Source: Minisyncoccia bacterium (GTDB lineage Bacteria; Patescibacteriota; Minisyncoccia; 2-02-FULL-40-12; IGHO2-01-FULL-4-A). Taken from it: a stretch of 64,000 nucleotides of DNA. Position 1 is the stretch's first letter; every line of letters begins with the position of its first letter. Below are positions 30,039-45,520 of this stretch, one piece after another. The DNA lies in contig JBEKBN010000006.1 in the NCBI GenBank assembly GCA_050015375.1, positions 454 to 64,453 of the forward strand, given 5' to 3'. A model generated the notes under the pieces. It did no database searches. It saw only the letters and a program-made list of their open reading frames with translations, and was not told the DNA's origin. The position numbers and the translations under genes were made by a program.

Positions 30039-30109
30039 GCGGGATTAGTACAGTGGCAGTACAATTGCTTCCCAAGCAATGGACGCGAGTTCGATTCTCG
30101 TATCCCGCT
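30039..30109 (+). tRNA. tRNA-Gly (anticodon CCC)
   Basis: Acceptor GCGGGAT/ATCCCGC, D-arm GTACAGTGGCAGTAC, anticodon loop TTCCCAA, T-loop TTCGATT. CCA is not encoded. Confidence 0.85.
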
Positions 30110-30269
30110 CAAAAATCAAAAAATTTTTTGATTTTTGAGCGGGTAAGCGAGCAAATTTATTGCTCGCGTCAAGATGAGAACGCCGGAGCGATGTTTCGCG
30201 AGTGATTGGCGAGCGAAACCGCGAGGCGGTGGCTAGACCGAGCCGCCGGAAGGCGGCGAGAGTCGAAGC

Positions 30270-30292
30270 CGATTCTCGTATCCCGCTCAAAA
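30270..30292 (+). repeat. 23-nt direct repeat of the tRNA-Gly 3' end (CGATTCTCGTATCCCGCTCAAAA), an att-like remnant
   Basis: Identical to 30092-30114. The two copies flank a 155-bp hairpin-rich segment. Confidence 0.6.
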
Positions 30293-30300
30293 TTGACAAC

Positions 30301-30373
30301 GCCGCCTTAGCTCAGTTGGTAGAGCAGCACTTTCGTAAAGTGAAGGTCCCCAGTTCGACTCTGGGAGGCGGCT
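30301..30373 (+). tRNA. tRNA-Thr (anticodon CGT)
   Basis: Acceptor GCCGCCT/AGGCGGC, D-arm TAGCTCAGTTGGTAGAGC, anticodon loop TTCGTAA, T-arm CCCAG-TTCGACT-CTGGG. Confidence 0.8.
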
Positions 30374-30432
30374 CACAGTTTTCAATCAAGTTAAACGGTT
30401 CCGTTGCAGGTTCTTTTACAAGGAGGCGACAA

Positions 30433-30987
30433 ATGTGCGAGCGGATAAAACTTAACATTCACGAAAAGGTCGAATTGATCCGGGCCTTTTTCGAAAAGAT
30501 CGAATTGCTTCCAGTAAGAATCGTACCGGGTTCTCTTCCGGCTCAATGTAAGAATATGATCGTTGATTCCGGCTCCGAAAAAGATGTTTGTTTTAATAGC
30601 CTTTTCCTGGCCAATATTTTGATCAAAACATGGAAAAAAATTGGTCGCACAGAAACCATTAATTTAGGCCTGATCGAGCGGATTTTTTGTGATAATTTGA
30701 TGCGAGACCAAATGGGCGGAAAGTCTCCGGATCTGCTGGAAAGGTTTATTTTTTCTGATCCGAGAGAACCTGAAAGGTATAGTCGGCAATTGATTCTGGC
30801 TTTGTTTATGTTAGTTCGGAATCATTTTATCGAGATTAACGGATGCGGTAACATTAGCCGTGGTTCAAGTCCTTTTTTAGAAGCTTATGCGATATGCCTG
30901 ACGCCTCAATGTCCGCCTGACAAACTTTGGCAAGTGGACATGATGGCCGAAGAAATCGCCCGCGCTACAAGACAGGAATTATCCTAA
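30433..30987 (+). CDS. hypothetical protein (184 aa)
   Basis: SD AAGGAGG before the ATG at 30433. The track's 30202 start would run through tRNA-Thr. Confidence 0.5.
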   Translation: MCERIKLNIHEKVELIRAFFEKIELLPVRIVPGSLPAQCKNMIVDSGSEKDVCFNSLFLANILIKTWKKIGRTETINLGLIERIFCDNLMRDQMGGKSPDLLERFIFSDPREPERYSRQLILALFMLVRNHFIEINGCGNISRGSSPFLEAYAICLTPQCPPDKLWQVDMMAEEIARATRQELS

Positions 30988-31048
30988 TAAAACCAGCCAT
31001 CCCCTGCGAGATGGCTTTTTTGTTGAAATATTGATGATGACTGGTAAG

Positions 31049-31342
31049 TCAGTTCTTTATCTTCTCGATGATCTTGTTGGTTTCGAGGATCTTCGGCTGG
31101 GCCAATCGGTAAAAAACCGTGAGCCCCTGCCGGCGGGGAGCGATAATATTAGCGTGGCGCAGGAGCGACAAATGCTGGGACACATTGGCTTTCCGCAAAT
31201 TCAAACCCTTGATCAGATCGGCGACTGCCGTCTCGCCTTTTTTTAAGATATCCAAAATCTCCAGCCGTATCGGGTTGGCCAGGATCTTGTAGAGTTCGGC
31301 TTTTTGCTCGTATTTCTTTTTGTCTTCTTTCGAAACAGTCAT
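31049..31342 (-). CDS. ArsR/SmtB-family transcriptional regulator
   Basis: LANPIRLEILDILKKGETAVADLIKGLNLRKANVSQHLSLLRHANII is an ArsR HTH. Confidence 0.8.
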   Translation of the reverse strand: MTVSKEDKKKYEQKAELYKILANPIRLEILDILKKGETAVADLIKGLNLRKANVSQHLSLLRHANIIAPRRQGLTVFYRLAQPKILETNKIIEKIKN

Positions 31343-31473
31343 AATATCGGATTATTGAATGTATTTCTGAAGATCGTCTGAATACTATCTATACTATACG
31401 AAAGGTTGGTGATTTTGGTGCAACGGTTGACCGGTGATTTTTTGCTGTCGGTATAAATTACGGGGGTCTCGTC

Positions 31474-31517
31474 ATAACATGTAGATATTGACCATATGGT
31501 CAATATCTACATGTTAT
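31474..31517. promoter_or_regulatory. 44-bp perfect palindrome (ATAACATGTAGATATTGACCAT|ATGGTCAATATCTACATGTTAT), putative operator
   Basis: Perfect dyad 30 bp upstream of the PaaX-like gene, in a divergent region shared with arsR. A near-copy is at 32111-32138. Confidence 0.6.
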
Positions 31518-31546
31518 TGTTTTATAGTTTCTGTTATTATGTATTC

Positions 31547-32113
31547 ATGAAGGCGATAAGAAGAGGAACCCTAGCTTTTAAAATTTTAAAAGGCATTGGT
31601 CTAACGGGTTTGTTTTTAATAAGCATGTCGAACCCGCGTTTTGGGGTTCAGTTATTGACGGGATTTAAAGAATATAACAAAAGGGAGAAACAAAAATTCA
31701 GAGAATCGTTATATTATTTGAAAAAAAGAGGATTGGTAAAAATCATAGAAAACAGTAGCGGCGGCTTTACGGCCAAATTGTCAAAGACCGGAGAAAAAAT
31801 GTTGGAATCTATCGACATTGATTGTCTTGAATTGAAAAATAAGGAATTTGATGGAAAATGGCGCGTGGTTATCTTTGATGTTCCGGTCAGATTGAATATT
31901 AAAAGACACGCTTTTACGGAACGACTGAAAACTCTGGGTTTTATCATGGTTCAAAGAAGTGTATGGATTTGTCCGTTTAGGTGCAGAAAAGAACTGGCGA
32001 TGTTAACCCAATTTTACGAAATTGAGAAATACGTCACATATTTAGAAACATCTTTTGTGGATAACGAAGAAGCGTGGAAAAAAGAGTTTTCACTAATCAA
32101 ACTGGTGGCTTAG
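31547..32113 (+). CDS. PaaX-like regulator: N-terminal winged helix plus a C-terminal Cas2-fold domain
   Basis: SLYYLKKRGLVKIIE (wHTH), then GKWRVVIFDVPVRLNIKRHAFTERLKTLGFIMVQRSVWICPF, which resembles the Cas2/PaaX_C motif (YDV..KRR...L...G.R.Q.SV). Confidence 0.5.
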   Translation: MKAIRRGTLAFKILKGIGLTGLFLISMSNPRFGVQLLTGFKEYNKREKQKFRESLYYLKKRGLVKIIENSSGGFTAKLSKTGEKMLESIDIDCLELKNKEFDGKWRVVIFDVPVRLNIKRHAFTERLKTLGFIMVQRSVWICPFRCRKELAMLTQFYEIEKYVTYLETSFVDNEEAWKKEFSLIKLVA

Positions 32114-32138
32114 ATATTCACCATATGGTCAATATCTA
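32111..32138. promoter_or_regulatory. imperfect 28-bp palindrome (TAGATATTCACCAT|ATGGTCAATATCTA), second copy of the operator-like dyad
   Basis: One central mismatch relative to the 31474 dyad. Overlaps the stop codon of the PaaX-like gene. Confidence 0.5.
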
Positions 32139-32217
32139 CACTTGGGGGTGTTGATATTGTGAGCGGATGACATAACCATGTTTCTATAAAAAGAAACACG
32201 GTTTTATTTTCCACAAG

Positions 32218-32246
32218 TTGACGGTGAAATCCATGAACATTATAAT
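32218..32246 (+). promoter_or_regulatory. sigma-70-like promoter (TTGACG-17 nt-TATAAT) upstream of the tasA-like gene
   Basis: Near-consensus -35/-10 about 80 nt upstream of 32327. Confidence 0.5.
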
Positions 32247-32326
32247 TTCGATATAACTAAACAATTTCCGTCGGAGGCGACTTTGACTTAAAGTAAAAGC
32301 CGAGAAAAACGGGAATTTTTCACGAA

Positions 32327-33637
32327 GTGAAAAAAATAATTTTGAGTTTGGCAGTTATCGGCGCGGTTTCGGTCGGCGTCATCGGAGGGACACGCTCTTT
32401 TTTCAGCAATGTCGAAACCTCGACCGGCAATTCTTTCACCGCCGGCGGAATTGATCTGAAGGTCGGGAATGTTAGTTATTACAACGGCGTCGCTTCGGCC
32501 AGCAGTTCCTGGTCGGCCAAGGATTTGGCGGCGGGAGATTTATTTTTTAATTTTTCTAATTTAATGCCCGGCGATATCGGTGAAAATTTAGTTGACCTGA
32601 ATGTCAAAGGCAATGACGCCTATGCTTGCATGACTGTTGCCATTACCGGAACTTCCAAAAACGGCCAGACCGGCGACAACGCAGGCGAATTGCAAAATGA
32701 ATTACATTTCACTTTTTGGGCCGATAACGGCGACAATGTTCTTGAAAGCGATGAAGTGGGCAAAATTTTTGTGGATAATGAAACTCTGGCGCAAATTGCC
32801 AGCAGTCAGGCGAAGATCATCTTAGCTGATTCGACAAAAAATGTTTGGAATACTGCCATGGTTGCCGGTTCGATGACCAGCGGCCAGACATACCACATCG
32901 GCAAAGTATTTTGTTACGGATCGTTGACCCAAGCCCTGGCCGCGCCCGGCATAAACGATCCGACTAAAGTCAGCGGATTTAATTGTAACGGGACATCGGT
33001 GAGTGATGCTTCCCAAACCGACGGTGTTTTGGGAGATATCAGTTTCACGGCGATCCAGTCGAAGAACAACGGTTCCTTCCGATGCAATCCCGTGGCGACA
33101 GTGACGCCGACCCCGACCCCGATTGCAATCTGGAATGATAATTTCGGAATTGGAGATGATAGCAATATAGTTGACAGCTGGGCCAAAACAAATGGTAACA
33201 CCGCCAGTGTCAGCGCTTATGGTACCTATGCCAAAAAGCCAACCACGGGTGATAATTCGGAAAGCCCCGACAATGGGCGGTTTGCACTTATTGCCGGCAA
33301 AGAATGGATTTGCCATCAGGTTGACGCGACGGGCTTGATGGATTTAACTCTTAGTTATTATTGGCGGGGAGATATTGACGCCGGCGTTTTAGATAATGGA
33401 GTAGTTGAATATCTTATTAACGGCGCCTGTGATTCATTAACTGGCTGGACAACTTTGGCAAATCATCAGCTTATCAAAGATGATTCTGGTAAAACCTCTT
33501 GGAGTGCGCTCCAGACCTTGAACTTGCCGGGCGACTTAAATAATACCCAATTTTTGATTCGCTTTCGCAGCAACTCTTCATCTCAAACGAAAAGCTTTCG
33601 AATTGATAACGTGAGCATGACCGGAATTCCAAATTAA
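32327..33637 (+). CDS. TasA/camelysin-like secreted protein with a SipW-cognate signal peptide
   Basis: N-terminus MKKIILSLAVIGAVSVGVIGGTRSFFSNVETSTGNSFTAGGIDL is the TIGR04088-type SipW-cognate signal. SipW is encoded immediately downstream. Confidence 0.7.
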   Translation: MKKIILSLAVIGAVSVGVIGGTRSFFSNVETSTGNSFTAGGIDLKVGNVSYYNGVASASSSWSAKDLAAGDLFFNFSNLMPGDIGENLVDLNVKGNDAYACMTVAITGTSKNGQTGDNAGELQNELHFTFWADNGDNVLESDEVGKIFVDNETLAQIASSQAKIILADSTKNVWNTAMVAGSMTSGQTYHIGKVFCYGSLTQALAAPGINDPTKVSGFNCNGTSVSDASQTDGVLGDISFTAIQSKNNGSFRCNPVATVTPTPTPIAIWNDNFGIGDDSNIVDSWAKTNGNTASVSAYGTYAKKPTTGDNSESPDNGRFALIAGKEWICHQVDATGLMDLTLSYYWRGDIDAGVLDNGVVEYLINGACDSLTGWTTLANHQLIKDDSGKTSWSALQTLNLPGDLNNTQFLIRFRSNSSSQTKSFRIDNVSMTGIPN

Positions 33638-33666
33638 TTCACGGGTTAACTGATTTACCGGTTCAA

Positions 33667-34536
33667 ATGAAAATAATTTTCAGGATTCTTTATTATTTGT
33701 TTTTCACGGCGGTTATTGTCGTTGTTTTGGCGTTGCTGGTGTCATTATTTCCGATTTTCGGGGGATTGAAGTTTTTCATTGTTCGATCGGGCTCGATGGC
33801 ACCGGCGATCAAAACCGGAAGCGTAGTGATGGTCAAACCCGAAGCCGATTACAAAATCGGGGATATAATATCGTTCAGTTTGGATGAAAAAAATGAAATA
33901 CCCACGACTCACCGCATCAAGGAAATAAAAATCAAAAACGGAATTCAGAAATTTATCACTCAAGGCGACGCCAACAACGCGCCGGACATGGTTGAAATTG
34001 AAAAAGAAAATATTATCGGCAAAGTGATTCTGACCGTTCCTTTAGCCGGATATTTGGTTGCAGTCGCTCAAAAACCGAGCGGTTATCTGGCGCTGATATT
34101 GATTCCGGCGTTCGTGATAATCGGCGACGAAATCTCGAAGATCATCAGGGAAACGAGAAAAAAACGTCAAGAGAAAAGCCAATCAAGCAACAAATCAATC
34201 CCATTCTATATTTTTTGTTTGGGTCTGGGACTTGCCGAGCTTTTACTCCCATCAATTCGCGCAAATTCGTTTTTCACGGCGACTGAAACCGGTGGGTTGA
34301 TGATAGTTGCCGGTTCGTGGTCACACGCCAAGACATCGGGCATCGCTATCGTGGCTCAAGAACCGACTTCTGATTCCGAGATTGACGTTCAAATCGCGAG
34401 TGGCGCTTCGGGAATCGAGTCAAATAAGGATGAACTAGCCCCAGAGCCGGCGGCGCCTCCGGCGCCGCCGGCCCCCGAAATCCCGCCGGCCGAAACCACC
34501 GTGGCGAGTCCTTCCGCCGAAATCATTCATGATTAA
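33667..34536 (+). CDS. sipW: signal peptidase I, SipW/archaeal type (S26B), with a Pro/Ala-rich C-terminal extension
   Basis: FIVRSGSMAPAIKTGSVVMV (SGSMxP), catalytic His in PTTHRI, and a second TM. The C-terminus is PEPAAPPAPPAPEIPPAE. Confidence 0.8.
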   Translation: MKIIFRILYYLFFTAVIVVVLALLVSLFPIFGGLKFFIVRSGSMAPAIKTGSVVMVKPEADYKIGDIISFSLDEKNEIPTTHRIKEIKIKNGIQKFITQGDANNAPDMVEIEKENIIGKVILTVPLAGYLVAVAQKPSGYLALILIPAFVIIGDEISKIIRETRKKRQEKSQSSNKSIPFYIFCLGLGLAELLLPSIRANSFFTATETGGLMIVAGSWSHAKTSGIAIVAQEPTSDSEIDVQIASGASGIESNKDELAPEPAAPPAPPAPEIPPAETTVASPSAEIIHD

Positions 34537-35410
34537 AACAAAAGTAAAACCAATTTTGACGGCAATTATTCTGTTTTTCGTTTTTTCGACCATTTTTTTG
34601 TCCGTCGTCAGTGTTCAAGCCGCCGATTTTCAGGTTACCTTCCAAAATCATCCGCTTTTCAAAAACGCCAATTTCATTCCCGGCGATTCGATCACTCGTT
34701 GGATCAAGGTCGTCAACAACAGCGGCCAAAATCAAACCGTCTTGATAAAAAGCGACAATGCCAGCGACCCCAATCACATGGACGGCGCAATGAATCTGAC
34801 CATCAAACAAGGGACCGCCACGCTTTATCAGAATTCTTTCGCTGATTTTTTGAGCGGGGACTTGATCGCTCTTTCTGAACTTGATAGCGGAAAAAGCGCT
34901 CAATATAATCTGACGGTTACATTCGATTTGTCCGCTGATGATCTTTATCAAAACAAGACGCTTGGTTTTAATATTCTTGTCGGTTTTGAACCGACCGGCT
35001 ACGAACAAAGCGATACCGGCACAACTTTTCTAACTGACAATCCCGATAATAAAGTCGAGGTTGTAACAATGACGCCGACGCCTTCGATAATTTCGTCGTC
35101 GCCGACGCCGACTCCGTCGGCGTCGGCGACCCCATCTCCCCGGCTAAAACCCAGCGTGAGTCCAATTTTACTTCGATCATCGCCAGCGCCCGTAATCGTT
35201 CACAATATTTCTTCCGCTACCACGTTATCCGCCAATTCACTTGCAACCCCGAACCTCCCGCCGTCTCTGACGACCGCCAATCCCGTCCGCCAACCCCAAC
35301 TCGCCCTCATTCTCGGCGTTTCCCCGACCCGCTGGCTGATCTATATTTTCATTTCCCTATTTGTCGGTATCGTTTCTTATGTAATTTCAAAAAAGTGGTT
35401 TAAAAATTAA
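34529..35410 (+). CDS. secreted surface protein with a Pro/Thr/Ser linker and a C-terminal TM anchor
   Basis: Signal peptide, a beta-rich domain, a PTPS-rich linker and the C-terminal anchor IYIFISLFVGIVSYVISKKWFKN. The anchor-coding segment is duplicated at 36193-36262. Confidence 0.5.
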   Translation: MIKTKVKPILTAIILFFVFSTIFLSVVSVQAADFQVTFQNHPLFKNANFIPGDSITRWIKVVNNSGQNQTVLIKSDNASDPNHMDGAMNLTIKQGTATLYQNSFADFLSGDLIALSELDSGKSAQYNLTVTFDLSADDLYQNKTLGFNILVGFEPTGYEQSDTGTTFLTDNPDNKVEVVTMTPTPSIISSSPTPTPSASATPSPRLKPSVSPILLRSSPAPVIVHNISSATTLSANSLATPNLPPSLTTANPVRQPQLALILGVSPTRWLIYIFISLFVGIVSYVISKKWFKN

Positions 35411-35411
35411 A
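35343..35411 (+). repeat. direct repeat copy 1 (about 70 bp, C-terminal anchor-coding segment)
   Basis: About 92% identical to 36193-36262. Together they bracket the PEP-CTERM gene cassette. Confidence 0.7.
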
Positions 35412-35517
35412 GATCGGAAACGGCGCGCGGATTTGCTTTATTATTTATCCTATGCTAGAGTGTTCGTAAGCTCATTAAGTTTGGCATCGAACCTTCACAC
35501 GAGGAGAGGAGAAGTTT

Positions 35518-36135
35518 ATGAAAAGAATGACCGTTTTGGGTTTGTTTCTGGTGGTTTTCCTGACCGTGTTTGCCGTATCGGTGAACGCCGAGACATTGGC
35601 ATTTAACGGCTATCCGTGGGGACTGAACGACGGTTCCTTCTATGTTGGAGACGCCGCCGGCACGCTGGGGACGAATAATATTGTAATGTGGTGCGTGGAT
35701 CCACTTCACGAAATCACGTTGAGTCCCTGGGATGTTACTGTCGTGTCTCTGGCAAATCCAATCGGACTAAACGGATTGCCCTTGACTGTGGCCGACTACG
35801 AGGCAATGTTTCTCCTCGGTCAGCAGTTCACGAATACAAACCAAACGATAGATGTGGCGCTACAGCACGAGATCTGGTCGTTCGCTAACCCGTCGGCATA
35901 TCCTCTTACGGTAGCCGAGCAAGGGCAGAAAAACGACGCCATAGCAGCGATCGGCGGTTATAACTTTTTGGGCGCTGACGTTCTTGTTCCCCAGGGAGAT
36001 CCTAGCGGGTGGACAGGGCAGGTTTTCGAGACCGGCACCGCGACTATGGTCCCTGAGCCCGCGTTCATCTTACTGTTAGGCCTGGGCCTAATGGGTGTCG
36101 TTCTGGCGGCCGGAGGAAGAAAACAGAAAAACTAA
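35518..36135 (+). CDS. secreted protein with a C-terminal PEP-CTERM sorting signal
   Basis: SD GAGGAGAGGAG. Signal peptide. The C-terminus VPEPAFILLLGLGLMGVVLAAGGRKQKN is a canonical PEP motif plus TM plus basic tail. No exosortase gene is in the window. Confidence 0.65.
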   Translation: MKRMTVLGLFLVVFLTVFAVSVNAETLAFNGYPWGLNDGSFYVGDAAGTLGTNNIVMWCVDPLHEITLSPWDVTVVSLANPIGLNGLPLTVADYEAMFLLGQQFTNTNQTIDVALQHEIWSFANPSAYPLTVAEQGQKNDAIAAIGGYNFLGADVLVPQGDPSGWTGQVFETGTATMVPEPAFILLLGLGLMGVVLAAGGRKQKN

Positions 36136-36192
36136 CCACCTTTTCGTATACGGTGGCCATTCCTTGAAGGAACGGCCACCGATTTTTTTTAT

Positions 36193-36262
36193 TATATTTT
36201 TAATTTCCCTGTTTGTCGGTATCGTTTCTTATATAATTTCAAAAAAGTGGTTTAAGGATTAA
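36193..36262 (+). repeat. direct repeat copy 2 (orphan anchor-coding remnant, LFLISLFVGIVSYIISKKWFKD*)
   Basis: Noncoding copy of the 35343-35411 segment that still reads as an in-frame anchor peptide. Confidence 0.7.
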
Positions 36263-36412
36263 ATTGTCAGCAGTGGATAACCTATTGCATTGTTTCGGTA
36301 TCTGATATATAAGGTAGATAGTCACGTTTTTTTCAACTTTCTTAAATCGTCTCACCGGATGGCGCCGACTCCGAACTCTTGTTAGCCGCCAGCACTGCCC
36401 GATGGACCTGTT

Positions 36413-39400
36413 TTGTTTATGAAAATAAACAAACTTGGGGGGGGGCTTAAGTGGTCGATTTTCGCAACTCTTTTAGCAACCGCTCTAGTAGGCGGATTTT
36501 TTGTACACAATGCCAAGGCGACTGTTAGCACCTGTTCTGATATCACCCTTGGTGTGACTCAAATCACTGCTATCCAAACCTATGCCACCGCTGACAATAC
36601 TTTTGCCGACGGCTGGAAATGGGTTTTCAATGTTACCGTTCCGACTTGCCAAACACTTCTTCAAATGAGATTCGGTGACTGGGTTGGAACCGCTGGCACC
36701 ATTCCAGCCGCGACAAATATTCAATTTTATTCTAATCAATCTACAAATGCAGCCGATGAGGCGCACGCAATAATTATCAGTGCCGCTAATACATATAGTG
36801 GTTTGATGATCCTTTCTGGTGCTGATCTTGATGGGTCAACACCCGGCACCCAGATCCAAATAACAGTTGAAGCGAGAGTTCCAATTGATTCAGCTGGTGG
36901 TTCTTACTCGACAAGTTATGGCATACAATCGAATCCTGCACCGACCGTTCTATTCGTTCTCCCTATCGGTAACATCAATGTTGCTAATGGCACCGCTCTT
37001 GATGCTGTAGGTTTGCCGGCTAATGCTACCGTAGGTTTGAGCAACGGAAACACTCAATTAATGGCAGTCGTTTGGGATGGTGGTACGCCAACTTATGACG
37101 GCACAACAGCTGGCACCTATGCTTTTACAGGTGCATTGACTTTACCTGCTGGTGTTACTAATCCGGACGGCAAAACAGCCAACGTAAACGTAATTGTGGA
37201 ACCAATACCTACCCACACCATTACCTCCTCTGTTGTAGGCGCATCTGTCTTTGGTCCGAAACACGGCACGATTTCTCCTCTCGGTGCAACGACCGTGAAT
37301 GATGGCGACAGCCAGACCTACACGATTACGCCCGATACCGGCTACCAGATTCTTGAGCTTAAAGTGGACGGTGTTTCCACAACGCCGGCCGACAGTTATA
37401 CTTTCACCAATGTCACAACTGACCATACCATTGCCGTGAGCTTTGCCCCGATTACTTATACCTTAACCTATTCCGCCGGAGCCCATGGTTCCATTGTTGG
37501 AACTTCGCCCCAGGCAGTAAATTACGGCGCTGATGGAACAGCCGTGACTGCGACGCCAGCCGAGGGTTATCATTTCGTAGGTTGGAGCGATCAGTCAACA
37601 ACTAATCCGAGAACCGACAACGATGTAACCGGCAATATTGATGTCACTGCCAGTTTTGCAGTTAACCAATATACAATTACTTTTGGTTCAAATGGTGGCT
37701 CAGCCGTAGCTTCCATAACTCAGGATTATGGCTCACCGGTTACTCCACCAGACGATCCAACTCGAGCAGGTTATACCTTCGCCGGTTGGGTTCCAACAGT
37801 TCCGGCAACGATGCCATTAGGCGGAGCGAGTTTAGTTGCCCAGTGGACTGCTGTTGTTGCACCAATCACCCACACTCAAAAGGATCTGACGACTTGGGTT
37901 CCGATTCAGGGTGGAATAACTGCCGATGTAACAATTTCAACAGTAAATAATAAATTCCACGCAGACGGAGTTCCAACTGGATATACTTTGGTGTATTACC
38001 CTAATGTTGGAACTTATGATACCTACACTGGAGAAGTTTATCCTGTAGAGGGCACTAATATGGATCTTCCAATGTCAGATGATTTGAATCGCGGTAAAGA
38101 AGATTACTGCAATAATGGATTTAATCCACACGCAATTCACTGTGATGGCGCTAAGTTGTGGCTTGTTCCAACCGAAGACATATCAACAACAATTAATTCT
38201 GATGGAAGCCAGACATTGGTTGGAGATTGGAATACGATCGCTCCGAATATTTTGTTCGAGACAAATCTGATAACTTATCAAGCAACTCCGATCACTCACA
38301 CCCAAAAGGATCTGAACACCTGGGCTCCACTTCCAAATGGAATAACTGCCGATGTTACATATGACCTGACCGGAGATACTTTCCAAGCGACCGGAGTTCC
38401 ACCTGGATATACTTTGGTGTATTATCCTAAACCCGCAACTTGGACCGGATTGGTCTATTCCGTCATTGGTAATAGCATGACCCTTCCAATGCCAGGTGAT
38501 TTGAATGGTAGTCCATCATCAGATTACTGTACCGTTAGAAATAGTGAGGGGAATTTGGAAAATCCGCATGAAATAATTTGCCAAGGAGCCGCGTTGTGGC
38601 TTGTTCCAACGGGTGAATTAACAGATAACCACGATGGGACTTATACAATTAATTGGGGCACTGCTTCTGATATTTTGTTCGAGACAGACCTGATAAATTA
38701 CACAGCTCCGACTTCTACCCCAAGCGCTAATCTTATTCTCACCGCTCCAGATGCCACAACTATTAATCAATCTGCTTTAGTTCCTGAAACGAGCAACGGA
38801 ATACCCACTGGCGGAAACTCAACAGTTGATACTGCCATCAATGGCCTTAGCCCGATTGCGGTGAGGTTGCAGAATACCGGCGATGCCGCTTCTGCTAATG
38901 TTCGCATCAGCCCGATTGGCGACGCTTCTGGGCACATTCAGTTATGGGCAAAAGATACTTTAGGTAATTGGTATGACATCAATGTTACTGGCTGGGGGCC
39001 AGCCGAAGGTTTTCCAGTGCCAGCCCCATACGATGCCACTACTAATGTCTATGCGATTTCCGACGAAGTAGGATCTTATGACATGATAGCTAATTTGATT
39101 TTGGTAAGTAATTCATCACTCGTTGCGCACACAAAGGGAATAATTACCGTTGCCCCTGCCCCGACCCTTTTGTTTGATACCGGCATCACTGATGGTTCCA
39201 CTATCTTACCGGGTACACTTGCAACTCAGTTCACGATTACAACTACGGGTGTCCCGGGTACGATGCACACGCTTGGGTTAACGGGCACCACAGCAACTCC
39301 AGCTCTTGCAGATGGCAATTATGACTTTAAGCTTGTGGCAACCTCAGACGTGCAAGCCGCTTTGACTTCTTATTTTGGAGCTAAGGCAGGATGGACTTCG

Positions 39401-40051
39401 GATATGCAAATGCAAACTCAAATCAATTCTGAAATTGCTGGCAGCTCGCCATTCTTCAAACTAAACGCTGCCAGCGGCGCCTATTCCTTAGTGGATAATT
39501 TCAAACAAACACTTGGCTTGCCAGATACATCCCTGACTATTGATGATGATTATCCAACCGGCACATACGTCTATACCGGCACACTTACTGGAACAAACAG
39601 CGCGACCCTGCCGGTTACTGTAACATTGGTAGTTGAAGGACCAACTCCGCCACCAACTCCTTCTGTAACACAATTGAAAATTATTACTAATCCGCAAACT
39701 ATTCTGGTAGATACCGCTTCAGGTGTGATTAGAGTGGAATCAGAGGACGCGTTAGGGAATCCATTAAAAGTTTCAGTTGCGACAGAAGTAGATTTCACCT
39801 CCAGTCCTGGAACAGGTTTGTTTTCTTCGGCAAATTATGAAAGTAAAACGTGTAATGACGATTGGTTAAGCACGCAAAGTTTAACCATAGAGAAAGGAAC
39901 TGCACATATAAGTTTCTGTTACAAAGACAACGTGGCGGGAACGCCGACACTAACAGCTTCTTCTGATGACTTGACTCCTGGTACTCAAGTAATTACAATA
40001 ACCTCAACTGATACCAGCTCAACTGACACTAGCGACACCACGCAACAATAA
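36413..40051 (+). CDS. giant repeat-rich cell-surface protein (Listeria-Bacteroides/flg_new-type repeats, Ig-like domains)
   Basis: 1212 aa with a signal peptide, repeated modules (ITHTQKDL...GVPTGYTLVYYP twice) and GYTFAGW-type repeats. A G9 tract sits in the signal-peptide coding region. Confidence 0.75.
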   Translation: MFMKINKLGGGLKWSIFATLLATALVGGFFVHNAKATVSTCSDITLGVTQITAIQTYATADNTFADGWKWVFNVTVPTCQTLLQMRFGDWVGTAGTIPAATNIQFYSNQSTNAADEAHAIIISAANTYSGLMILSGADLDGSTPGTQIQITVEARVPIDSAGGSYSTSYGIQSNPAPTVLFVLPIGNINVANGTALDAVGLPANATVGLSNGNTQLMAVVWDGGTPTYDGTTAGTYAFTGALTLPAGVTNPDGKTANVNVIVEPIPTHTITSSVVGASVFGPKHGTISPLGATTVNDGDSQTYTITPDTGYQILELKVDGVSTTPADSYTFTNVTTDHTIAVSFAPITYTLTYSAGAHGSIVGTSPQAVNYGADGTAVTATPAEGYHFVGWSDQSTTNPRTDNDVTGNIDVTASFAVNQYTITFGSNGGSAVASITQDYGSPVTPPDDPTRAGYTFAGWVPTVPATMPLGGASLVAQWTAVVAPITHTQKDLTTWVPIQGGITADVTISTVNNKFHADGVPTGYTLVYYPNVGTYDTYTGEVYPVEGTNMDLPMSDDLNRGKEDYCNNGFNPHAIHCDGAKLWLVPTEDISTTINSDGSQTLVGDWNTIAPNILFETNLITYQATPITHTQKDLNTWAPLPNGITADVTYDLTGDTFQATGVPPGYTLVYYPKPATWTGLVYSVIGNSMTLPMPGDLNGSPSSDYCTVRNSEGNLENPHEIICQGAALWLVPTGELTDNHDGTYTINWGTASDILFETDLINYTAPTSTPSANLILTAPDATTINQSALVPETSNGIPTGGNSTVDTAINGLSPIAVRLQNTGDAASANVRISPIGDASGHIQLWAKDTLGNWYDINVTGWGPAEGFPVPAPYDATTNVYAISDEVGSYDMIANLILVSNSSLVAHTKGIITVAPAPTLLFDTGITDGSTILPGTLATQFTITTTGVPGTMHTLGLTGTTATPALADGNYDFKLVATSDVQAALTSYFGAKAGWTSDMQMQTQINSEIAGSSPFFKLNAASGAYSLVDNFKQTLGLPDTSLTIDDDYPTGTYVYTGTLTGTNSATLPVTVTLVVEGPTPPPTPSVTQLKIITNPQTILVDTASGVIRVESEDALGNPLKVSVATEVDFTSSPGTGLFSSANYESKTCNDDWLSTQSLTIEKGTAHISFCYKDNVAGTPTLTASSDDLTPGTQVITITSTDTSSTDTSDTTQQ
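36437..36445 (+). repeat. homopolymeric G9 tract within codons 9-11 of the giant surface protein gene
   Basis: AAACTTGGGGGGGGGCTTAAG. The only G/C homopolymer of 8 nt or more that I found in the window. Confidence 0.8.
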
Positions 40052-40065
40052 ACAACTAAAACCCT

Positions 40066-40749
40066 ATGAAAAAAAATATATTGATAATTTTAGTGTATGG
40101 ATTGCTGGCGGTGTCGCTGTTTGTGTTTGGTAATCGGGTGTTTGCGGACCAAGTCACCGGAACTCTGACAACAGGAATTAGCGGCAATAACGGCCAAACA
40201 ATGAATGGCGTGGTCATTGCTCCGCCGATACCTAGCCCATTGCCCGGAACCTATCCCTTAACACAGGATAACGTGGCCCTAAAAGTTGGTTTGTCTTCCG
40301 CCGGTTCGATGAGTATTCGCTATGCTACAGATGGGTCTGTACTGACATGCGCTAACGGGAATCTATACAATGCTAATGCTCTGATTCCGGTGAGTGTCAC
40401 AACGACAATTGAGGCAATCTCGTGTTATCCAAATGGAATTTCATCTGCGGTCGCTGGTTTCACTTATACAATTAATCCGGCGACTCCGACTCCAACGCCT
40501 ACCACATCTACTGGTGGCGGCGGGGGAGGCGGGGGCTCATATTATTCCTTTACCCCGACCCCAACTCCGAGTCCAGGTGTGGCCATAGTGGGCGATATAA
40601 ACGGTAATGGTAAGGTGGATATTAGTGACTTCGATATGTTGATGAACAATTGGGGGAAAACCGGAACTGGAATCCAAGGCGATTTGGACCACAACGGCGT
40701 TGTTGATATATTGGATTTTAATTTATTGATGGCTAACTGGAGTAAATAA
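40066..40749 (+). CDS. dockerin-domain secreted protein
   Basis: C-terminus GDINGNGKVDISDFDMLMNNWGK...GDLDHNGVVDILDFNLLMANWSK is two canonical dockerin type I Ca-binding repeats. Also carries a signal peptide and a Gly8 linker. Confidence 0.7.
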   Translation: MKKNILIILVYGLLAVSLFVFGNRVFADQVTGTLTTGISGNNGQTMNGVVIAPPIPSPLPGTYPLTQDNVALKVGLSSAGSMSIRYATDGSVLTCANGNLYNANALIPVSVTTTIEAISCYPNGISSAVAGFTYTINPATPTPTPTTSTGGGGGGGGSYYSFTPTPTPSPGVAIVGDINGNGKVDISDFDMLMNNWGKTGTGIQGDLDHNGVVDILDFNLLMANWSK

Positions 40750-40768
40750 TTACGACAAAATCACAAAC

Positions 40769-41518
40769 ATGAAAAAAATATTGTTCAGTTCAATACTGGT
40801 CACTGGATTCGCGGTTTTTTTTGTCGGAAATGCTCTGGCCGATTCATCAATATCGTTGTCGCCGGTTAGTATTTCTCCGAAAGCGGGAAGCACGGTCAAT
40901 GTTACCGTGACGGTCAATCCAAATAGCGTCAGTAATTCAACCGTAAAGCTTGTACTTAATTATCCCGCCGATCTTCTGCAAGCAACAGGATTCACTTTTG
41001 CCGGTAACTGGATGCCGTTGACTCAAACCGGTTACGATTCCATCGATAACACAGGAGGTACCCTGATTAAAACTGGCGGTTATCCGGGCGGATTCTCGAC
41101 AACCACGACCCTTGGCACGGTAACATTCAAAGCGAAGAGAACCGGCACCGGCGCAATCAGTATCGGAAGCGGTTCAATGGTTCTGGATTTAAGCAGTAAA
41201 AATGTTTTGACCGATATTTCTTCAACTGTGACAATTTCAATTCCGACTTTAACAGCGCCGACTCCGAAACCGTCAACAATTGTAGGCAATATTCCGGCAG
41301 TTTCGCCGGTAACTGGCGTCACTGAATCGGCGACGCCGAGCCCCATTGTCGCCGCCAATGCATTGCCAGCCAATGGCCAGCAATACGGCACTATCGCCAC
41401 GGCCCTCGGAATTCATAACGGCACGTGGTGGATTTGGCTAGTAGTTCTCTTGGTCATCATCTATCTCATCTATCGGATATTCAGGAAAAGATCCGGCCCG
41501 AGCCAGCCGACTCAATAA
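40769..41518 (+). CDS. cohesin-like domain protein with a C-terminal TM anchor
   Basis: Signal peptide and a beta-sandwich region (VKLVLNYPADLLQATGFTFAGNW...GTVTFKAKRTGTGAISIG) resembling cohesin. C-terminal anchor WWIWLVVLLVIIYLIYRIFRKR. Confidence 0.5.
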   Translation: MKKILFSSILVTGFAVFFVGNALADSSISLSPVSISPKAGSTVNVTVTVNPNSVSNSTVKLVLNYPADLLQATGFTFAGNWMPLTQTGYDSIDNTGGTLIKTGGYPGGFSTTTTLGTVTFKAKRTGTGAISIGSGSMVLDLSSKNVLTDISSTVTISIPTLTAPTPKPSTIVGNIPAVSPVTGVTESATPSPIVAANALPANGQQYGTIATALGIHNGTWWIWLVVLLVIIYLIYRIFRKRSGPSQPTQ

Positions 41519-41569
41519 GTTTCGGAGACAGTAAGCAACTCGCCTGCCCGAAGGGGTAGGAGGTGGATA

Positions 41570-41597
41570 TTGACAACAAAAACCAGCTTGATATAAT
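41570..41597 (+). promoter_or_regulatory. strong sigma-70 promoter (TTGACA-16 nt-TGaTATAAT) upstream of the panA-like gene
   Basis: Consensus -35 and an extended -10, about 110 nt upstream of 41707. Confidence 0.6.
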
Positions 41598-41706
41598 GGA
41601 GGTACTAAACGTGAAAAGCATCCTAGATGGGTGCTTTTCGGTCTATGGTGCATAACTTCATAGAGTTTGCCTGTTAAAACTGTCATAATTAATATAAAAA
41701 GAACTT

Positions 41707-42243
41707 ATGAAAATACCGCTACCAAAACTCAAGGCGATTATTAGGTATTTTGGTACCCATACTGATCCCAAATTTCTCGGCAAGGTTAAATTAATGAAAC
41801 TTTTCTACTTTCTTGATTTCATGCATGTCAAAAAATTTGGTGCACCCATAACATATGACTGTTATATCAACTTAGAACATGGTCCAATACCGTCAGCTAT
41901 TAAAAATCTAGTTGACTCGGCCGCAGATGATATTGATAATTCCGTCCTCGCTGACGCAATCAGGATTGAAAGACCGCAAAGTACCGATATGTACAGAGTG
42001 GTGCCTCTTAGGGAATTCAATAAAGCTGATGAAAATTATTTCTCTGAAACCGAGCTCGAAACATTAAAAAAAGTATGCGCAAGGTTTAGCGACAAAAATA
42101 CGAAATTCATTGAAGATGAATCTCACAAAGAAGCTCCGTGGAAAGAAACCAAGTTTTTGGATGTAATACCCTACGAACTCGCCACTAAGGACAAAGATTG
42201 TTTAATATCCGAAGAAGAAATAAAACTACTTCTTTCTATCTGA
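41707..42243 (+). CDS. Panacea-domain (DUF4065, SocA/PanA-like) antitoxin
   Basis: KVKLMKLFYFLDFMHVKKFGAPITYDCYINLEHGPIPS and ESHKEAPWKETKFLDVIPYELA match the DUF4065/Panacea consensus (KLQKLLYF..., SHxExPW). Confidence 0.75.
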   Translation: MKIPLPKLKAIIRYFGTHTDPKFLGKVKLMKLFYFLDFMHVKKFGAPITYDCYINLEHGPIPSAIKNLVDSAADDIDNSVLADAIRIERPQSTDMYRVVPLREFNKADENYFSETELETLKKVCARFSDKNTKFIEDESHKEAPWKETKFLDVIPYELATKDKDCLISEEEIKLLLSI

Positions 42244-42244
42244 A

Positions 42245-42655
42245 GTGCTTAACCTAATAAAATTTGGGGATGTTTTTGTTTATAAAGGTACTGAATGGGT
42301 TTTCTTGGCAAAAACCGAAGAACTCCTTTTCGCAGCCCAAATACTGGATAAAGAGCAAACGGCTCAAATAGATTTATTATTTAATAAGCTAGCCTCAAAG
42401 GGCAGCAAGATTGCCGACCAGATAAAAGATAAACCTCTTTATTGTTATGTTGTCCTCGAGACAGAAAAATTTAAAAGAAGAGCAGCTCATTTCAAAACAG
42501 CCATCAGCGGCAAAAGCGCAAATGATAATGAGCCTTTTTTTGATAAAATACTGGATCCTTTGATAAAAAGCGATTTGGTTAATATTAAAAAACAAATTAT
42601 AAATGGTCCGTTTAGCAAATTACTTAAGGATATAGTAAGGGATATTGATATTTAA
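42245..42655 (+). CDS. candidate PanT-type toxin of unknown family (136 aa), translationally coupled to panA
   Basis: GTG start 1 nt after the panA stop. No recognisable domain. Classified by its position in a two-gene module. Confidence 0.4.
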   Translation: MLNLIKFGDVFVYKGTEWVFLAKTEELLFAAQILDKEQTAQIDLLFNKLASKGSKIADQIKDKPLYCYVVLETEKFKRRAAHFKTAISGKSANDNEPFFDKILDPLIKSDLVNIKKQIINGPFSKLLKDIVRDIDI

Positions 42656-42667
42656 AATGAAACTACT

Positions 42668-43213
42668 ATGAACATACCGACGAAAATATTTTTTACAAAA
42701 GGGGTGGGAGCGCACAAAGACCGGCTGGCTTCTTTTGAGATGGCTTTGAGGAATGCCGGCATTGAAAAATGCAATCTGGTTTATGTCTCAAGTATTTTTC
42801 CTCCCCGGTGCAAGATCGTTACAAAAGAAGAAGGTATGAAATCGCTGGAGGCGGGCCAGATAACTTTTTGCGTCATGGCAAGGAATGAAACCAACGAACC
42901 CAACAGATTGATCTCTTCGGCGATCGGAGTCGCCGTGCCAAGAGACAATAGCACTTACGGTTATTTGTCGGAGCATCATAGTTTTGGAGAGAAAGCGGAA
43001 ATAGCCGGCGAATACGCGGAAGACCTGGCCGCCACCATGCTTGCCACCACTCTTGGAATAGAATTTGATCCGGCCACGGCCTGGGAAGAAAGAGAACAAA
43101 TTTACAAAGCAAGCGGGTACATATTTAAGACATCAAATTTTTGCCAGACGGCCGAAGGAAACAAAAACGGATTATGGACAACAGTCATCGCCGTCGCGGT
43201 AATGCTGGAATAA
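42668..43213 (+). CDS. pdaD: pyruvoyl-dependent arginine decarboxylase
   Basis: [37 protein letters not shown] matches the PdaD family, including the Ser-Ser self-cleavage site. Confidence 0.8.
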
Positions 43214-43265
43214 AACAGACCCTCCCTTTGGCATAATTGTATCAAAATGATACTATTGTGGTCAG

Positions 43266-44390
43266 ATGAAGTATAGAAATCATGAAACTGAAGTTGTTTT
43301 GTTTTTCGCCGTTTTTTTGATGGGAATTTTGGTTTTTGCGGTCGGGGCGGAAAATGCCAGGGCGAGCTATCACTTTGCCAATTATCGGGGACAACCGCCG
43401 ATCCATATTTACGGCGGGACGAGTAAAACACCCAAAGGCATGACACCGGCACAAATCAAAAAAATCTACAATTTGCCGGCAAGCGGGGGCTCGGGCACGA
43501 TCGCTATTGTCGGCGCGTACGATGACGCGACGATCGAGGCCGATCTGGCTGGTTTCGATAAACAATTCAATCTCGTGTCTTGCACGACTAAAAACGGCTG
43601 TTTTGAAAAACATAAAATGAGCTCGGCAATTTCGGCCAACAGCGGCTGGGCGTTGGAGACGACGCTTGACGTGGAATGGTCGCATGCCATTGCGCCGAAC
43701 GCCAAAATACTTCTCGTCGAAGCGACGACGCCAAGTGGAGCCAATCTTCTGAAGGCCATTGATTACGCAACGGGCCGAGCCGACGCAGTGGCAATTTCAA
43801 TGAGTTGGGGCGGAGCTGAATTTCCGGAAGAAACCACATTAGATAGTCATTTCGTCAGCAAATCAGGCGCCGTCTTTTTTGCATCCTCGGGCGATAACGG
43901 CTGGGGCGCGTCTTGGCCGGCATCGAGTCCGAATGTCATCGGCGTCGGCGGGACGACCGTTGTCATGAGCTCGAACGGAACTTTTCAAAAAGAAACTGCC
44001 TGGAGCGGCAGTGGCGGCGGTGTCAGCAAATACGAAAAACAACCCGGCTTTCAGGCGGATTATTCAATAACCAAAAGCAACGGCATGCGGGCGATCCCTG
44101 ATGTCGCTTATGATGCCGATCCGGCTTCGGGTTTCCCGATCTATCGTCTTGGCATTTGGCGAACGGTTGGGGGAACTTCCGCCGGCGCGCCTCAATGGGC
44201 AGGTATCGCCGCTTTGAACCACTCGGTTTCAAACAGCAAGATTTATCAGGACAAAGCGGCCGACAATTTCGCATCATATTTTCGCGACATCGTCAGCGGC
44301 GCGAACGGCGATTGTAAATATTATTGTCAAGCCCGAAAACATTACGACTACATCACCGGCCTGGGCAGTCCTCAGACATCATCATTCTGA
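43266..44390 (+). CDS. secreted subtilase/sedolisin-like serine peptidase (S8/S53 clan)
   Basis: Signal/TM region, then SSGDNGW and GGTSAGAPQWAGIAAL (catalytic Ser motif). The subfamily is not resolved. Confidence 0.65.
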   Translation: MKYRNHETEVVLFFAVFLMGILVFAVGAENARASYHFANYRGQPPIHIYGGTSKTPKGMTPAQIKKIYNLPASGGSGTIAIVGAYDDATIEADLAGFDKQFNLVSCTTKNGCFEKHKMSSAISANSGWALETTLDVEWSHAIAPNAKILLVEATTPSGANLLKAIDYATGRADAVAISMSWGGAEFPEETTLDSHFVSKSGAVFFASSGDNGWGASWPASSPNVIGVGGTTVVMSSNGTFQKETAWSGSGGGVSKYEKQPGFQADYSITKSNGMRAIPDVAYDADPASGFPIYRLGIWRTVGGTSAGAPQWAGIAALNHSVSNSKIYQDKAADNFASYFRDIVSGANGDCKYYCQARKHYDYITGLGSPQTSSF

Positions 44391-44431
44391 TCTTATTTGA
44401 GCCGCAGGGGATTTCAGTGTATTCTTAAACC

Positions 44432-44758
44432 GTGAAATACTCACCACAAAAAATCGGATTTTTTCAGGCGATCGGGGTCGTTTTGTATATTTGTCTTTTC
44501 GCGACGGCAGTTCAGATCGTCCAAAACTGGAGACCGAGTTTTTTCATGCAATCCGGACCGGCCAGCGGAATTATAATTTTTCTTTTGGTTTTCGTGGTTT
44601 CGGCCACGATTTGCGGGGCGATGTTTCTGGGTTATCCGGCGGTTCTGTTGTTTGAAGGCAAAAAATCCGAAGCCGTCAAAACGGTGCTTTGGTCAATTCT
44701 CTGGCTGGTCATCTTTGCTATCGTCATCGGCTCGGCTTTTCTTCTTTTGGTTTATTGA
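44432..44758 (+). CDS. hypothetical membrane protein
   Basis: Three predicted TM helices. No motif. Confidence 0.45.
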   Translation: MKYSPQKIGFFQAIGVVLYICLFATAVQIVQNWRPSFFMQSGPASGIIIFLLVFVVSATICGAMFLGYPAVLLFEGKKSEAVKTVLWSILWLVIFAIVIGSAFLLLVY

Positions 44759-44818
44759 CCGCTGGCAATTTTTCAAGCAGTTTTTTCTTCATTGACGCCA
44801 ATGATTTTTTGAGATATT

Positions 44819-45520
44819 GTGTTTTTGCGTTCTTTTAATAATCCATATCATTTTGAAAGGCGGTGGCAAGTGGAGCCAGGTGCGGTATTGACGGGCCATG
44901 CGGCCGTTCGGATCAGTGGTAGATTAAGTTTAACCGCTCAGGTAGTGAGAGTTTTGCTGGATTCAGGTTTGTTTGTCTTATTATCCGAGGACAAAAATAA
45001 GAATTGTGTTCGCAAGCTGATCTACTCTGAGATTGATGATTTGTGTTTCGTTGTCATTCAGAATTGTGTCAACGGGAATATAGTGACAATTCATGAAGCC
45101 GAACATTGCGCAGAAATTTCAACCGAGGCGATGGCGCAAGCAAAAGAACTGGTCGGGAACATAGAAATCGGGACATACTTTAATCCCGTTTTGATCCAAA
45201 ACGACCAGAAAATCAGGTTTGGAATATATTATCTGGATTCAGCTGCCAACCAAACACGAGTATTGAACATCAAAGTTACCGCGAATAAGTATCTCGGGAT
45301 TCTTGATCCTTTGGAAGCAAACGCGGAACTGGAGGATGAACTTTGCGAGATGATAAAGCGATCACTTCGTCCAAAAGATATAATTATGTCGGCATTTTTT
45401 AAAATCACTGAAAAAGATAAAGCCAGATACTTCCCAGTTAAAAACCTCCTTATCCACCTGGACTCTTTGCGAAGAAGGTCTTTGCGAAAAAAATCCTTGA
45501 CCAAAACCGCCTCTACCTAA
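44819..45520 (+). CDS. hypothetical protein
   Basis: 233-aa ORF. No motif recognised. The start is uncertain. Confidence 0.4.
   Translation: MFLRSFNNPYHFERRWQVEPGAVLTGHAAVRISGRLSLTAQVVRVLLDSGLFVLLSEDKNKNCVRKLIYSEIDDLCFVVIQNCVNGNIVTIHEAEHCAEISTEAMAQAKELVGNIEIGTYFNPVLIQNDQKIRFGIYYLDSAANQTRVLNIKVTANKYLGILDPLEANAELEDELCEMIKRSLRPKDIIMSAFFKITEKDKARYFPVKNLLIHLDSLRRRSLRKKSLTKTAST

Follow-up and report, generated by a model that had tools for sequence, protein, structure and literature searches.

A single-gene PEP-CTERM unit between two copies of a 70-bp anchor-coding repeat in a Minisyncoccia genome: probable insertion with target duplication

Introduction

The window analysed here is a 64,000-nucleotide (64-kb) stretch of the genome of a Minisyncoccia bacterium (contig JBEKBN010000006.1, positions 454 to 64,453, forward strand), a member of the Candidate Phyla Radiation (CPR). 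In this window the last 70 bp of a surface-protein gene, p293, which belong to the segment for its C-terminal membrane anchor, occur a second time further downstream, and between the two copies lies a single gene for a secreted protein with a PEP-CTERM sorting signal. How did the 3' end of one gene come to stand on both sides of another? An earlier note, made from the sequence alone, offered two explanations: a cassette that was inserted into a paralogue with target duplication, or a recombination between tandem paralogues that deleted all but the 3' end of the second. Our analysis suggests that p293, a single-copy gene, probably received a self-contained unit within its last 70 bp, and that this 70-bp target was duplicated in the process.

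Results

The repeat consists of an upstream copy (copy A), which is the coding 3' end of p293, and a downstream copy (copy B). Both copies and the unit between them have the following features (all positions refer to the window; L numbers denote loci fetched for comparison).

35342..35411, forward strand: repeat copy A, the last 69 nt of the p293 open reading frame (ORF; last 23 codons with the TAA stop), plus 1 nt beyond
35412..36192, forward strand: putatively inserted unit of 781 nt, one complete transcription unit with a repeat copy on either side
35453..35461, forward strand: extended -10-like promoter element TGCTAGAGT, aligned to TGCTAAAAT in L005 and L018 and to TGCTAGTCT in L008
35502..35511, forward strand: Shine-Dalgarno-like element AGGAGAGGAG, 6 nt 5' of the ATG; a GGAGG-type element is kept in L005 and L008
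35518..36135, forward strand: ORF of a secreted PEP-CTERM protein of 205 amino acids (aa), with signal peptide (35518-35589), Cys/Gln domain (35590-36048) and PEP-CTERM signal (36049-36132)
35692-35694, 35860-35877 and 36019-36021, forward strand: landmarks of the Cys/Gln domain, namely C59, LQHEIW and Q168, respectively
36151..36190, forward strand: intrinsic terminator with a 15-bp stem (93% complementary), GA and a run of eight T
36193..36263, forward strand: repeat copy B, a noncoding remnant of the 3' end of p293 that still adjoins the ancestral downstream DNA

Copy A and copy B are identical at 65 of 70 bases and differ by five substitutions, and copy B has one extra base near its 5' end. 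MAFFT and a repeat search agree on this, and the similarity of about 70 bp described in the earlier note thus held on re-inspection. A 44-nt core (35360-35403 and 36212-36255) is identical save for one position, entered as N in the search; the window contains it exactly two times, and 100 dinucleotide shuffles gave 0 matches. The repeat pair is not a chance match. The homology begins directly 3' of the T-run of the PEP-CTERM gene's terminator and ends, in both copies, one base past the TAA.

Copy B is a noncoding scar and no credible gene. As the earlier note had pointed out, its translation still reads in frame, ending in LISLFVGIVSYIISKKWFKD and a stop; of the four in-frame differences from copy A, two are synonymous and two conservative. 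The sole ORF that contains copy B is 55 aa long, starts at a GTG and overlaps the end of the preceding gene. This ORF is not kept in the related strain represented by L007, where the indel is absent and the upstream frame is different. Between the window and L007 copy B is about 93% identical (67/72 aligned bases over 36193-36265), and both substitutions within the phantom frame are synonymous. The neighbouring intergenic DNA is 95% conserved between the two strains and the conservation of copy B is no higher. A weak terminator-like hairpin lies 3' of copy B (36270-36288), and an Rfam search of 34000-37000 returned a chance microRNA match only. The repeat sequence was not found in viral contigs.

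The structure of the locus is not an assembly artefact. L007 is an independent metagenome contig of the Joint Genome Institute (JGI), 96% identical to the window, and in it the PEP-CTERM gene is likewise followed by the terminator, then copy B, then the downstream gene. The right junction has thereby been seen independently. An ENA contig, possibly assembled from the reads that also gave the NCBI contig, is identical to the window over 30730-45410. The two copies differ, and the repeat is shorter than the assembler k-mer.

The interval between the two copies corresponds exactly to one promoter-to-terminator unit with no leftover sequence, and it holds one ORF only, which bears out the earlier statement that a single gene lies between the copies. 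Family members in L005 and L008 have a homologous promoter, 5' untranslated region (UTR) and terminator; an alignment of the upstream regions that also includes L018 covers about 75 nt in front of the ATG. The promoter element TGCTAGAGT was read by eye and from this alignment; a consensus promoter scan did not call it. The terminator hairpin has a homologue with compensated changes in L007, and similar hairpins stand in L005, L008 and L018. No terminal inverted repeats were found at the ends of 35412-36192, and no integrase or transposase is present among the called genes from 30.7 to 45.4 kb (30730-45410). Two mobile-element scenarios were considered and rejected. An integron cassette does not fit a unit with its own conserved promoter, with a T-run terminator hairpin that is not an attC site and without intI, and a transposable element with target-site duplication does not fit a 70-bp duplication without transposase and terminal inverted repeats.

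L002 contains the orthologous operon, in which the TasA-like protein matches at 68%, SipW at 68% and p293 at 52% (BLASTP) or 50% (tblastn), with p293 in the same operon position. There, no PEP-CTERM gene and no copy B or second p293 3' end is found, and an unrelated large gene begins 66 bp 3' of p293. The 45 nt 3' of copy B resemble the 45 nt past the p293 stop codon in L002 (shuffle p = 0.005), whereas the 45 nt 3' of copy A show no resemblance to this flank (shuffle p = 0.24). Since the flank of copy B and not that of copy A matches the post-stop flank of L002, copy B stands in the ancestral context. Neither a second p293-like gene, a tandem paralogue nor a duplicated 3' end occurs in L002 or in L009-L015. 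The synteny comparison proposed in the earlier note has therefore given a right junction shared with L007, an L002 locus lacking both gene and copy B, and no full-length second paralogue, either at this locus or at the p293-family loci fetched.

The PEP-CTERM gene itself belongs to a very small close family: even when a profile served as the query, 5.8 billion proteins yielded just 11 clusters (90% identity). Among species-representative genomes only two matches were obtained, one in a Candidatus Doudnabacteria metagenome-assembled genome (MAG) and one in a Candidatus Saccharibacteria MAG. So far, this close branch has turned up only in CPR genomes (Minisyncoccia, Doudnabacteria, Saccharibacteria). 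In the other loci with enough flanking sequence (L003, L005, L008 and L018) the gene lies amid toxin-antitoxin genes in the variable region 3' of uvrA, and it stands beside a SipW operon only in the window and in L007; its position in the window is therefore derived. No p293-like fragment accompanies the gene in the other family loci, and a search of viral contigs for the gene family, p293 and the repeat found nothing. With a GC content of 0.531 the unit lies about 1.9 standard deviations above the 30 other genes of the window (0.467 +/- 0.034), and in every genome examined the family exceeds its surroundings in GC content.

Further repeats were noticed near family members. Those around the gene in L008 and L018 were considered as target duplications and rejected; they are copies of a dispersed CAAAGAGTCTCTTTG hairpin, which marks off many gene units at these loci. 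In these Doudnabacteria-like contigs the palindrome CAAAGAG(A/T)CTCTTTG follows successive gene units 3' of uvrA (L008 3576-3624 and 5673-5722; L018 7540-7581, 9821-9840 and 11513-11532) and looks like a dispersed family of terminator-like hairpins. In L020 the family member P0008 lies directly 3' of an unrelated PEP-CTERM protein. Here the anchor-coding 3' ends together with 33 nt of 3' UTR form direct repeats (575-702 and 1403-1527; 96 nt at 78% and 33 nt at 88%, spacing 828). At this locus as well, then, neighbouring genes share or exchange anchor segments.

The target of the putative insertion is the last gene of a TasA-like/SipW operon within a cluster of surface-protein genes, of which the following are of importance here.

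32327..33637, forward strand: TasA/camelysin-like protein with SipW-dependent signal peptide, first structural gene of the operon (NCBIfam TIGR04088, 25.7 bits, cut-off 19)
33667..34536, forward strand: SipW-type (archaeal-type) signal peptidase I (TIGR02228, 110 bits; SipW NF046067, 108 bits)
34529..35410, forward strand: p293, the target gene, with signal peptide, conserved N-domain, Pro/Ser/Thr linker and C-terminal transmembrane anchor plus KKWFKN
36413..40051, forward strand: downstream neighbour, which has a G9 tract at 36436-36444 and encodes a surface protein of 1212 aa (Flg_new, Flg_new_2, Big_4)

The TasA-like product (32327-33637) scored 22.1 bits with Pfam Peptidase_M73, slightly below the cut-off of 22.5. 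The gene p293 is single-copy and its product has no Pfam, NCBIfam or PDB match. We also considered p293 as a paralogue of TasA and rejected this, since neither the TasA-like protein next to it nor any PDB chain resembles it significantly. Those of its few relatives whose C-terminus lies on the fetched contig likewise have the conserved N-domain, the Pro/Ser/Thr linker and a C-terminal transmembrane anchor with a basic tail. Relatives lie near a SipW gene in L012 and L014, and L012 has TasA-like genes as well.

Several observations concern the neighbourhood rather than the repeat. The nine-G run at 36436-36444 corresponds to codons 6-9 of the 1212-aa gene (ATG at 36419), is also present in L007 and is a candidate tract for slipped-strand phase variation. 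Two adjacent genes follow the giant protein at 40066-41518, one dockerin-like (Dockerin_1, CHB_HEX_C_1) and one cohesin-like, the product of the latter having a C-terminal transmembrane segment; the pair is a possible cohesin-dockerin tether on the CPR cell surface. A protein with a PaaX_M/Cas2-like fold (31496-32113) heads the TasA/SipW operon, and an HTH_20/HTH_5 regulator (31049-31342) is divergently oriented; the orthologous operon of L002 has a histidine kinase instead. In the region 30039-30730 the ENA contig, k141_408795, ends at window position 30730, 356 nt past a tRNA-Gly/tRNA-Thr pair, and the NCBI contig continues. Such a break in the assembly, beside tRNA genes and on the margin of the surface-protein cluster (31-42 kb), might reflect strain heterogeneity or the border of an island.

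The passenger of the unit carries a genuine tripartite PEP-CTERM signal, composed of PEP motif, transmembrane helix and basic C-terminal cluster. The C-terminus of the product is VPEPAFILLLGLGLMGVVLAAGGRKQKN and matches Pfam PF07589 with 21.5 bits (cut-off 20.7); all 11 close family members match as well (best E 5.9e-08), and the description of this signal as a textbook one was well founded. The product had already been named "PEP-CTERM sorting domain-containing protein" by NCBI in a Minisyncoccia MAG (MGD0977149.1). An exact look-up of the 205-aa product gave no record, the gene caller having taken a later start. The signal peptide MKRMTVLGLFLVVFLTVFAVSVNA (followed by E) was read from the sequence without a dedicated predictor, and its hydrophobic N-terminus is conserved in the family. 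A motif scan of the window found no PEP-CTERM protein besides this one.

No exosortase is encoded in the 64-kb window, in agreement with the earlier note. The screen started from 10 ORFs of at least 150 aa with at least three membrane segments by hydropathy, SipW and p293 being set aside. Nine polytopic ORFs were scanned (SecY, a sugar transferase, two FtsX, ABC-2, PAP2, EamA, VTT and one unmatched), alongside a non-membrane 836-aa ORF (DUF4012). The fetched flanks of family members did not yield an exosortase either, and a literature search gave no link of PEP-CTERM or exosortase with CPR. Between uvrA and the PEP-CTERM gene, L005 (2995-5007) and L018 (7795-9786) encode a conserved protein of 663-670 aa that matches no family and begins with a multi-pass membrane region. 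We considered it as a possible sorting enzyme, and nothing spoke for this.

A full HMMER scan of 1.84 billion representatives collected 86 clusters (E up to 0.001), mostly of 200-260 aa and of the same build, with signal peptide, Cys/Gln domain and PEP-CTERM. In this superfamily PF07589 is present in 66 of 84 aligned members, and the NCBIfam model of the flocculation-associated PepA is matched by 46 of the 84 (P0019-P0102). To judge from these matches, PepA-type floc proteins may share the same Cys/Gln domain.

This domain provides a lead towards the function of the passenger. Thioester domains (TEDs) carry a [YFL]C-hydrophobic-hydrophilic motif on a strand, a TQxx-hydrophobic-W motif on the central helix and a Gln on a late strand (PMC4450167, PMC6194298). 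In the close family C59, D61, H117 and Q168 are invariant; across 84 superfamily sequences C59 alone is invariant and D61, W120, Q168 and the PEP motif are conserved in at least 90%. The domain motifs MWC[VI]D, [LI]QH[EA]IW and GQ[VIL]F occur in the same order and in the same predicted secondary-structure context as in TEDs. MWC[VI]D follows the pattern around the bond-forming Cys with Trp in place of Y/F/L and adjoins a predicted strand; LQHEIW lies on a predicted helix (109-123) and follows the TQxx-hydrophobic-W pattern with Leu/Ile in place of Thr (superfamily consensus IQHAIW). Q168 stands beside the last predicted strand, and the surrounding GQVFE fits the weak TED consensus loosely.

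Two AlphaFold2 models (predicted local distance difference test, pLDDT, 68 and 75) consist of strands, three helices and strands again; the TED fold itself combines a beta-barrel with a three-helix bundle. For each of them the best PDB match is a streptococcal TED adhesin, 5a0l (SfbI) and 5dcq (FNE), respectively, at non-significant values (E 0.07 and 0.24; template modelling score 0.24-0.39). Among sequence searches, the Pfam TED model PF08341 matched 1 of 84 relatives remotely (E = 0.0027) and none of the 11 close members at E up to 10. Profile searches found no TED in the PDB, and hhalign against eight plasmid-borne class II TEDs aligned the Cys motif alone (probability 0.4%). The failure to match TEDs by sequence is not decisive, because known TEDs are mutually undetectable by phmmer. 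We regard the assignment of the Cys/QxxIW/Gln domain to the thioester domains as a lead with somewhat less than an even chance of being right.

Discussion

Our data argue for an insertion with target duplication: the right junction recurs in L007, L002 has neither the gene nor copy B, and no tandem paralogue appears in the fetched p293 loci. We consider it probable that a self-contained unit entered the last 70 bp of the single-copy gene p293. The upstream copy would have left p293 and its membrane anchor intact, and the downstream copy would have remained joined to the original downstream DNA, where it would be decaying as a noncoding scar. The event would be older than the split of the two sampled strains. 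Of the first explanation in the earlier note the insertion with duplication therefore stands, and the paralogue does not, the target being the own 3' end of a single p293 that stays intact through copy A.

The most likely route would be illegitimate, short-homology or template-switch recombination, which we favour because a transposase would not duplicate as much as 70 bp and the vicinity encodes no recombinase. A new strand could have left the chromosome where the segment ends, copied the donor unit and re-entered where the segment starts. In L005 and L008 a sequence 150 nt before the gene agrees at 15 of 16 positions with the 16 nt that close the repeat (TGGTTTAAAAATTAAA, 35396-35411; shuffle p ~0.002), which suggests a short-homology left junction. 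Divergence between copy A and copy B (5/70) is about that of copy B between the two strains (about 5/72) and would be compatible with copies that were identical at birth.

Some points weigh against this interpretation. We found no empty-site sequence from a close strain, and L002 is not a clean empty site because it differs downstream of p293. The left junction has been seen in the assemblies of one sample only. A duplication of 70 bp is far beyond transposase size, and the mechanism has been deduced from the anatomy alone. The microhomology is one 16-mer in AT-rich DNA, for which the L005 and L008 regions are non-independent, and the molecular-clock argument depends on a handful of substitutions. 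The GC content is weak evidence of a recent transfer, because the family is GC-rich relative to its context in every genome.

The same anatomy would result from a Campbell-type integration, in which a small circle with the gene unit and its own p293-like 3' end (attP-like) underwent a single crossover with the chromosomal 3' end, either homologously or by a site-specific recombinase encoded elsewhere. Such an event would also yield attL/attR-like repeats flanking the insert, a restored target ORF and the native flank after the second copy. A length of 70 bp is typical of att-type repeats and sufficient for RecA, and in-frame differences that are synonymous in 2/4 and conservative in 2/4 cases fit two once-functional alleles. 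Still, about 15 kb of called genes around the site include no integrase or recombinase, no further copy of the repeat exists in the window or the viral contigs, and the gene has no p293-like fragment next to it in other family loci. Nor is a foreign allele needed, because the copies differ no more from each other than copy B differs between strains; all in all, we think this integration unlikely. We see considerably less probability in a deletion between tandem paralogues, the second explanation in the earlier note, according to which two p293 paralogues once flanked the PEP-CTERM gene and the second was cut down to its last 70 bp. Surface-protein genes are commonly duplicated, and the open frame of copy B with its synonymous or conservative differences from copy A would fit. 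The comparative data disfavour it, in that no tandem p293 or duplicated 3' end exists in L002 or L009-L015, the orthologous operon of L002 being single-copy. In addition, the endpoint would need to be the last T of the terminator run, no remnant of a paralogue is left between terminator and copy B, and a separate insertion of the PEP-CTERM gene would still be required.

Two further proposals concern copy B and the assembly. One could take copy B for a functional element, i.e. a gene for a small transmembrane peptide or a selected regulatory or terminator element, on the grounds that it is about 93% conserved between two strains, that both phantom-frame substitutions are synonymous and that a weak terminator-like hairpin (36270-36288) follows it. 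We deem this very improbable in light of a conservation that does not exceed the 95% of neighbouring intergenic DNA, the missing Rfam match and the absence of any ribosome-binding site or start codon that is conserved; in the window the one ORF covering copy B opens with a GTG that lies within the preceding gene, and an indel breaks its frame in L007. Hardly credible at all is an artefact that fused strain variants. Its basis would be that the source is a MAG and that there are differences between the two assemblies outside the locus, given that the contig from ENA, unlike the one from NCBI, stops at window position 30730. Each junction, however, lies within single k-mers because the 70-nt repeat is shorter than the final k of the assembler (141), the copies are not identical, and the independent JGI sample shows the right junction again.

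With insertion and target duplication as the probable origin, the repeat becomes an ordinary insertion scar, which dates and delimits a one-gene acquisition in a CPR genome at base-pair precision. A whole promoter-to-terminator unit can, on this account, move between surface-protein loci with no mobile-element machinery in sight, and the direct repeats permit its clean loss by homologous recombination. From its predicted features, the unit would add a small Sec-secreted and C-terminally anchored surface protein to a cluster that comprises TasA-like/SipW, giant Ig-repeat and cohesin/dockerin-like proteins. An insertion scar is a known kind of feature. The interest lies in the passenger, with a close branch so far confined to CPR, no exosortase found and a possible thioester domain. 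CPR epibionts are not known to have an outer membrane or an exosortase.

If the domain is a thioester domain, covalent host binding would follow, and the protein would be a testable candidate for the attachment of epibionts to their hosts; thioester adhesins would then extend beyond the Gram-positive, sortase-anchored setting. Though this is less likely than not, the family might constitute minimal (~150-aa) thioester "chemical harpoon" adhesins that bind hosts covalently and use a PEP-CTERM-type anchor in place of LPXTG. This would call for an unrecognised CPR sorting enzyme, or else for a PEP-CTERM segment that serves as a plain membrane anchor, and the insertion flanked by 70-bp repeats would show how an adhesin gene moves among surface-protein loci.

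Comparison with known systems

PEP-CTERM/exosortase sorting (PF07589, TIGR02595) has been described for Gram-negative, exopolysaccharide-producing bacteria. The window protein shares the N-terminal signal peptide, the C-terminal VPEP motif, the Gly-rich transmembrane helix and the basic cluster, but its host is a CPR (Minisyncoccia) MAG, and neither the window nor the fetched flanks contain an exosortase. The operon of the target gene recalls tapA-sipW-tasA of Bacillus subtilis, in which the signal peptidase SipW goes with TasA and a third secreted protein. In the window, too, a SipW-type peptidase adjoins a TasA/camelysin-like protein with a SipW-cognate signal peptide, and a third secreted protein is present. 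The gene order is different, however, and p293 has a C-terminal membrane anchor and no detectable similarity to TapA.

Integrative islands with attL/attR enter a gene at its 3' end and leave it restored. The locus is alike in its direct repeats of tens of bp, in the upstream copy that completes the target ORF and in the displaced 3' end on the far side; it differs in its 781-bp insert with one passenger gene and no integrase, no second use of the site was found, and the repeats may be a one-off duplication. Target-site duplications of transposable elements, usually 2-15 bp long, likewise place duplicated target on either side of an insert, but here the duplication is 70 bp and there is neither transposase nor terminal inverted repeats. 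With integron cassettes the locus has in common a single-gene unit in one orientation, as opposed to its own promoter, a T-run terminator instead of attC, and the absence of intI and of a cassette array.

From the Gram-positive TED adhesins (SfbI, Cpa, FNE, TIE; PMC4450167, PMC6194298, PMC8092201) the window protein differs in its domain of ~150 aa versus ~200 or more, in a PEP-CTERM anchor instead of LPXTG, in having no stalk domains and in lacking a Pfam TED match. It resembles them in a secreted N-terminal domain on a C-terminally anchored protein, in the WCVD Cys motif, the LQHEIW helix motif and, more loosely, a Gln beside the last predicted strand, and in that Cys and Gln are practically the sole conserved residues.

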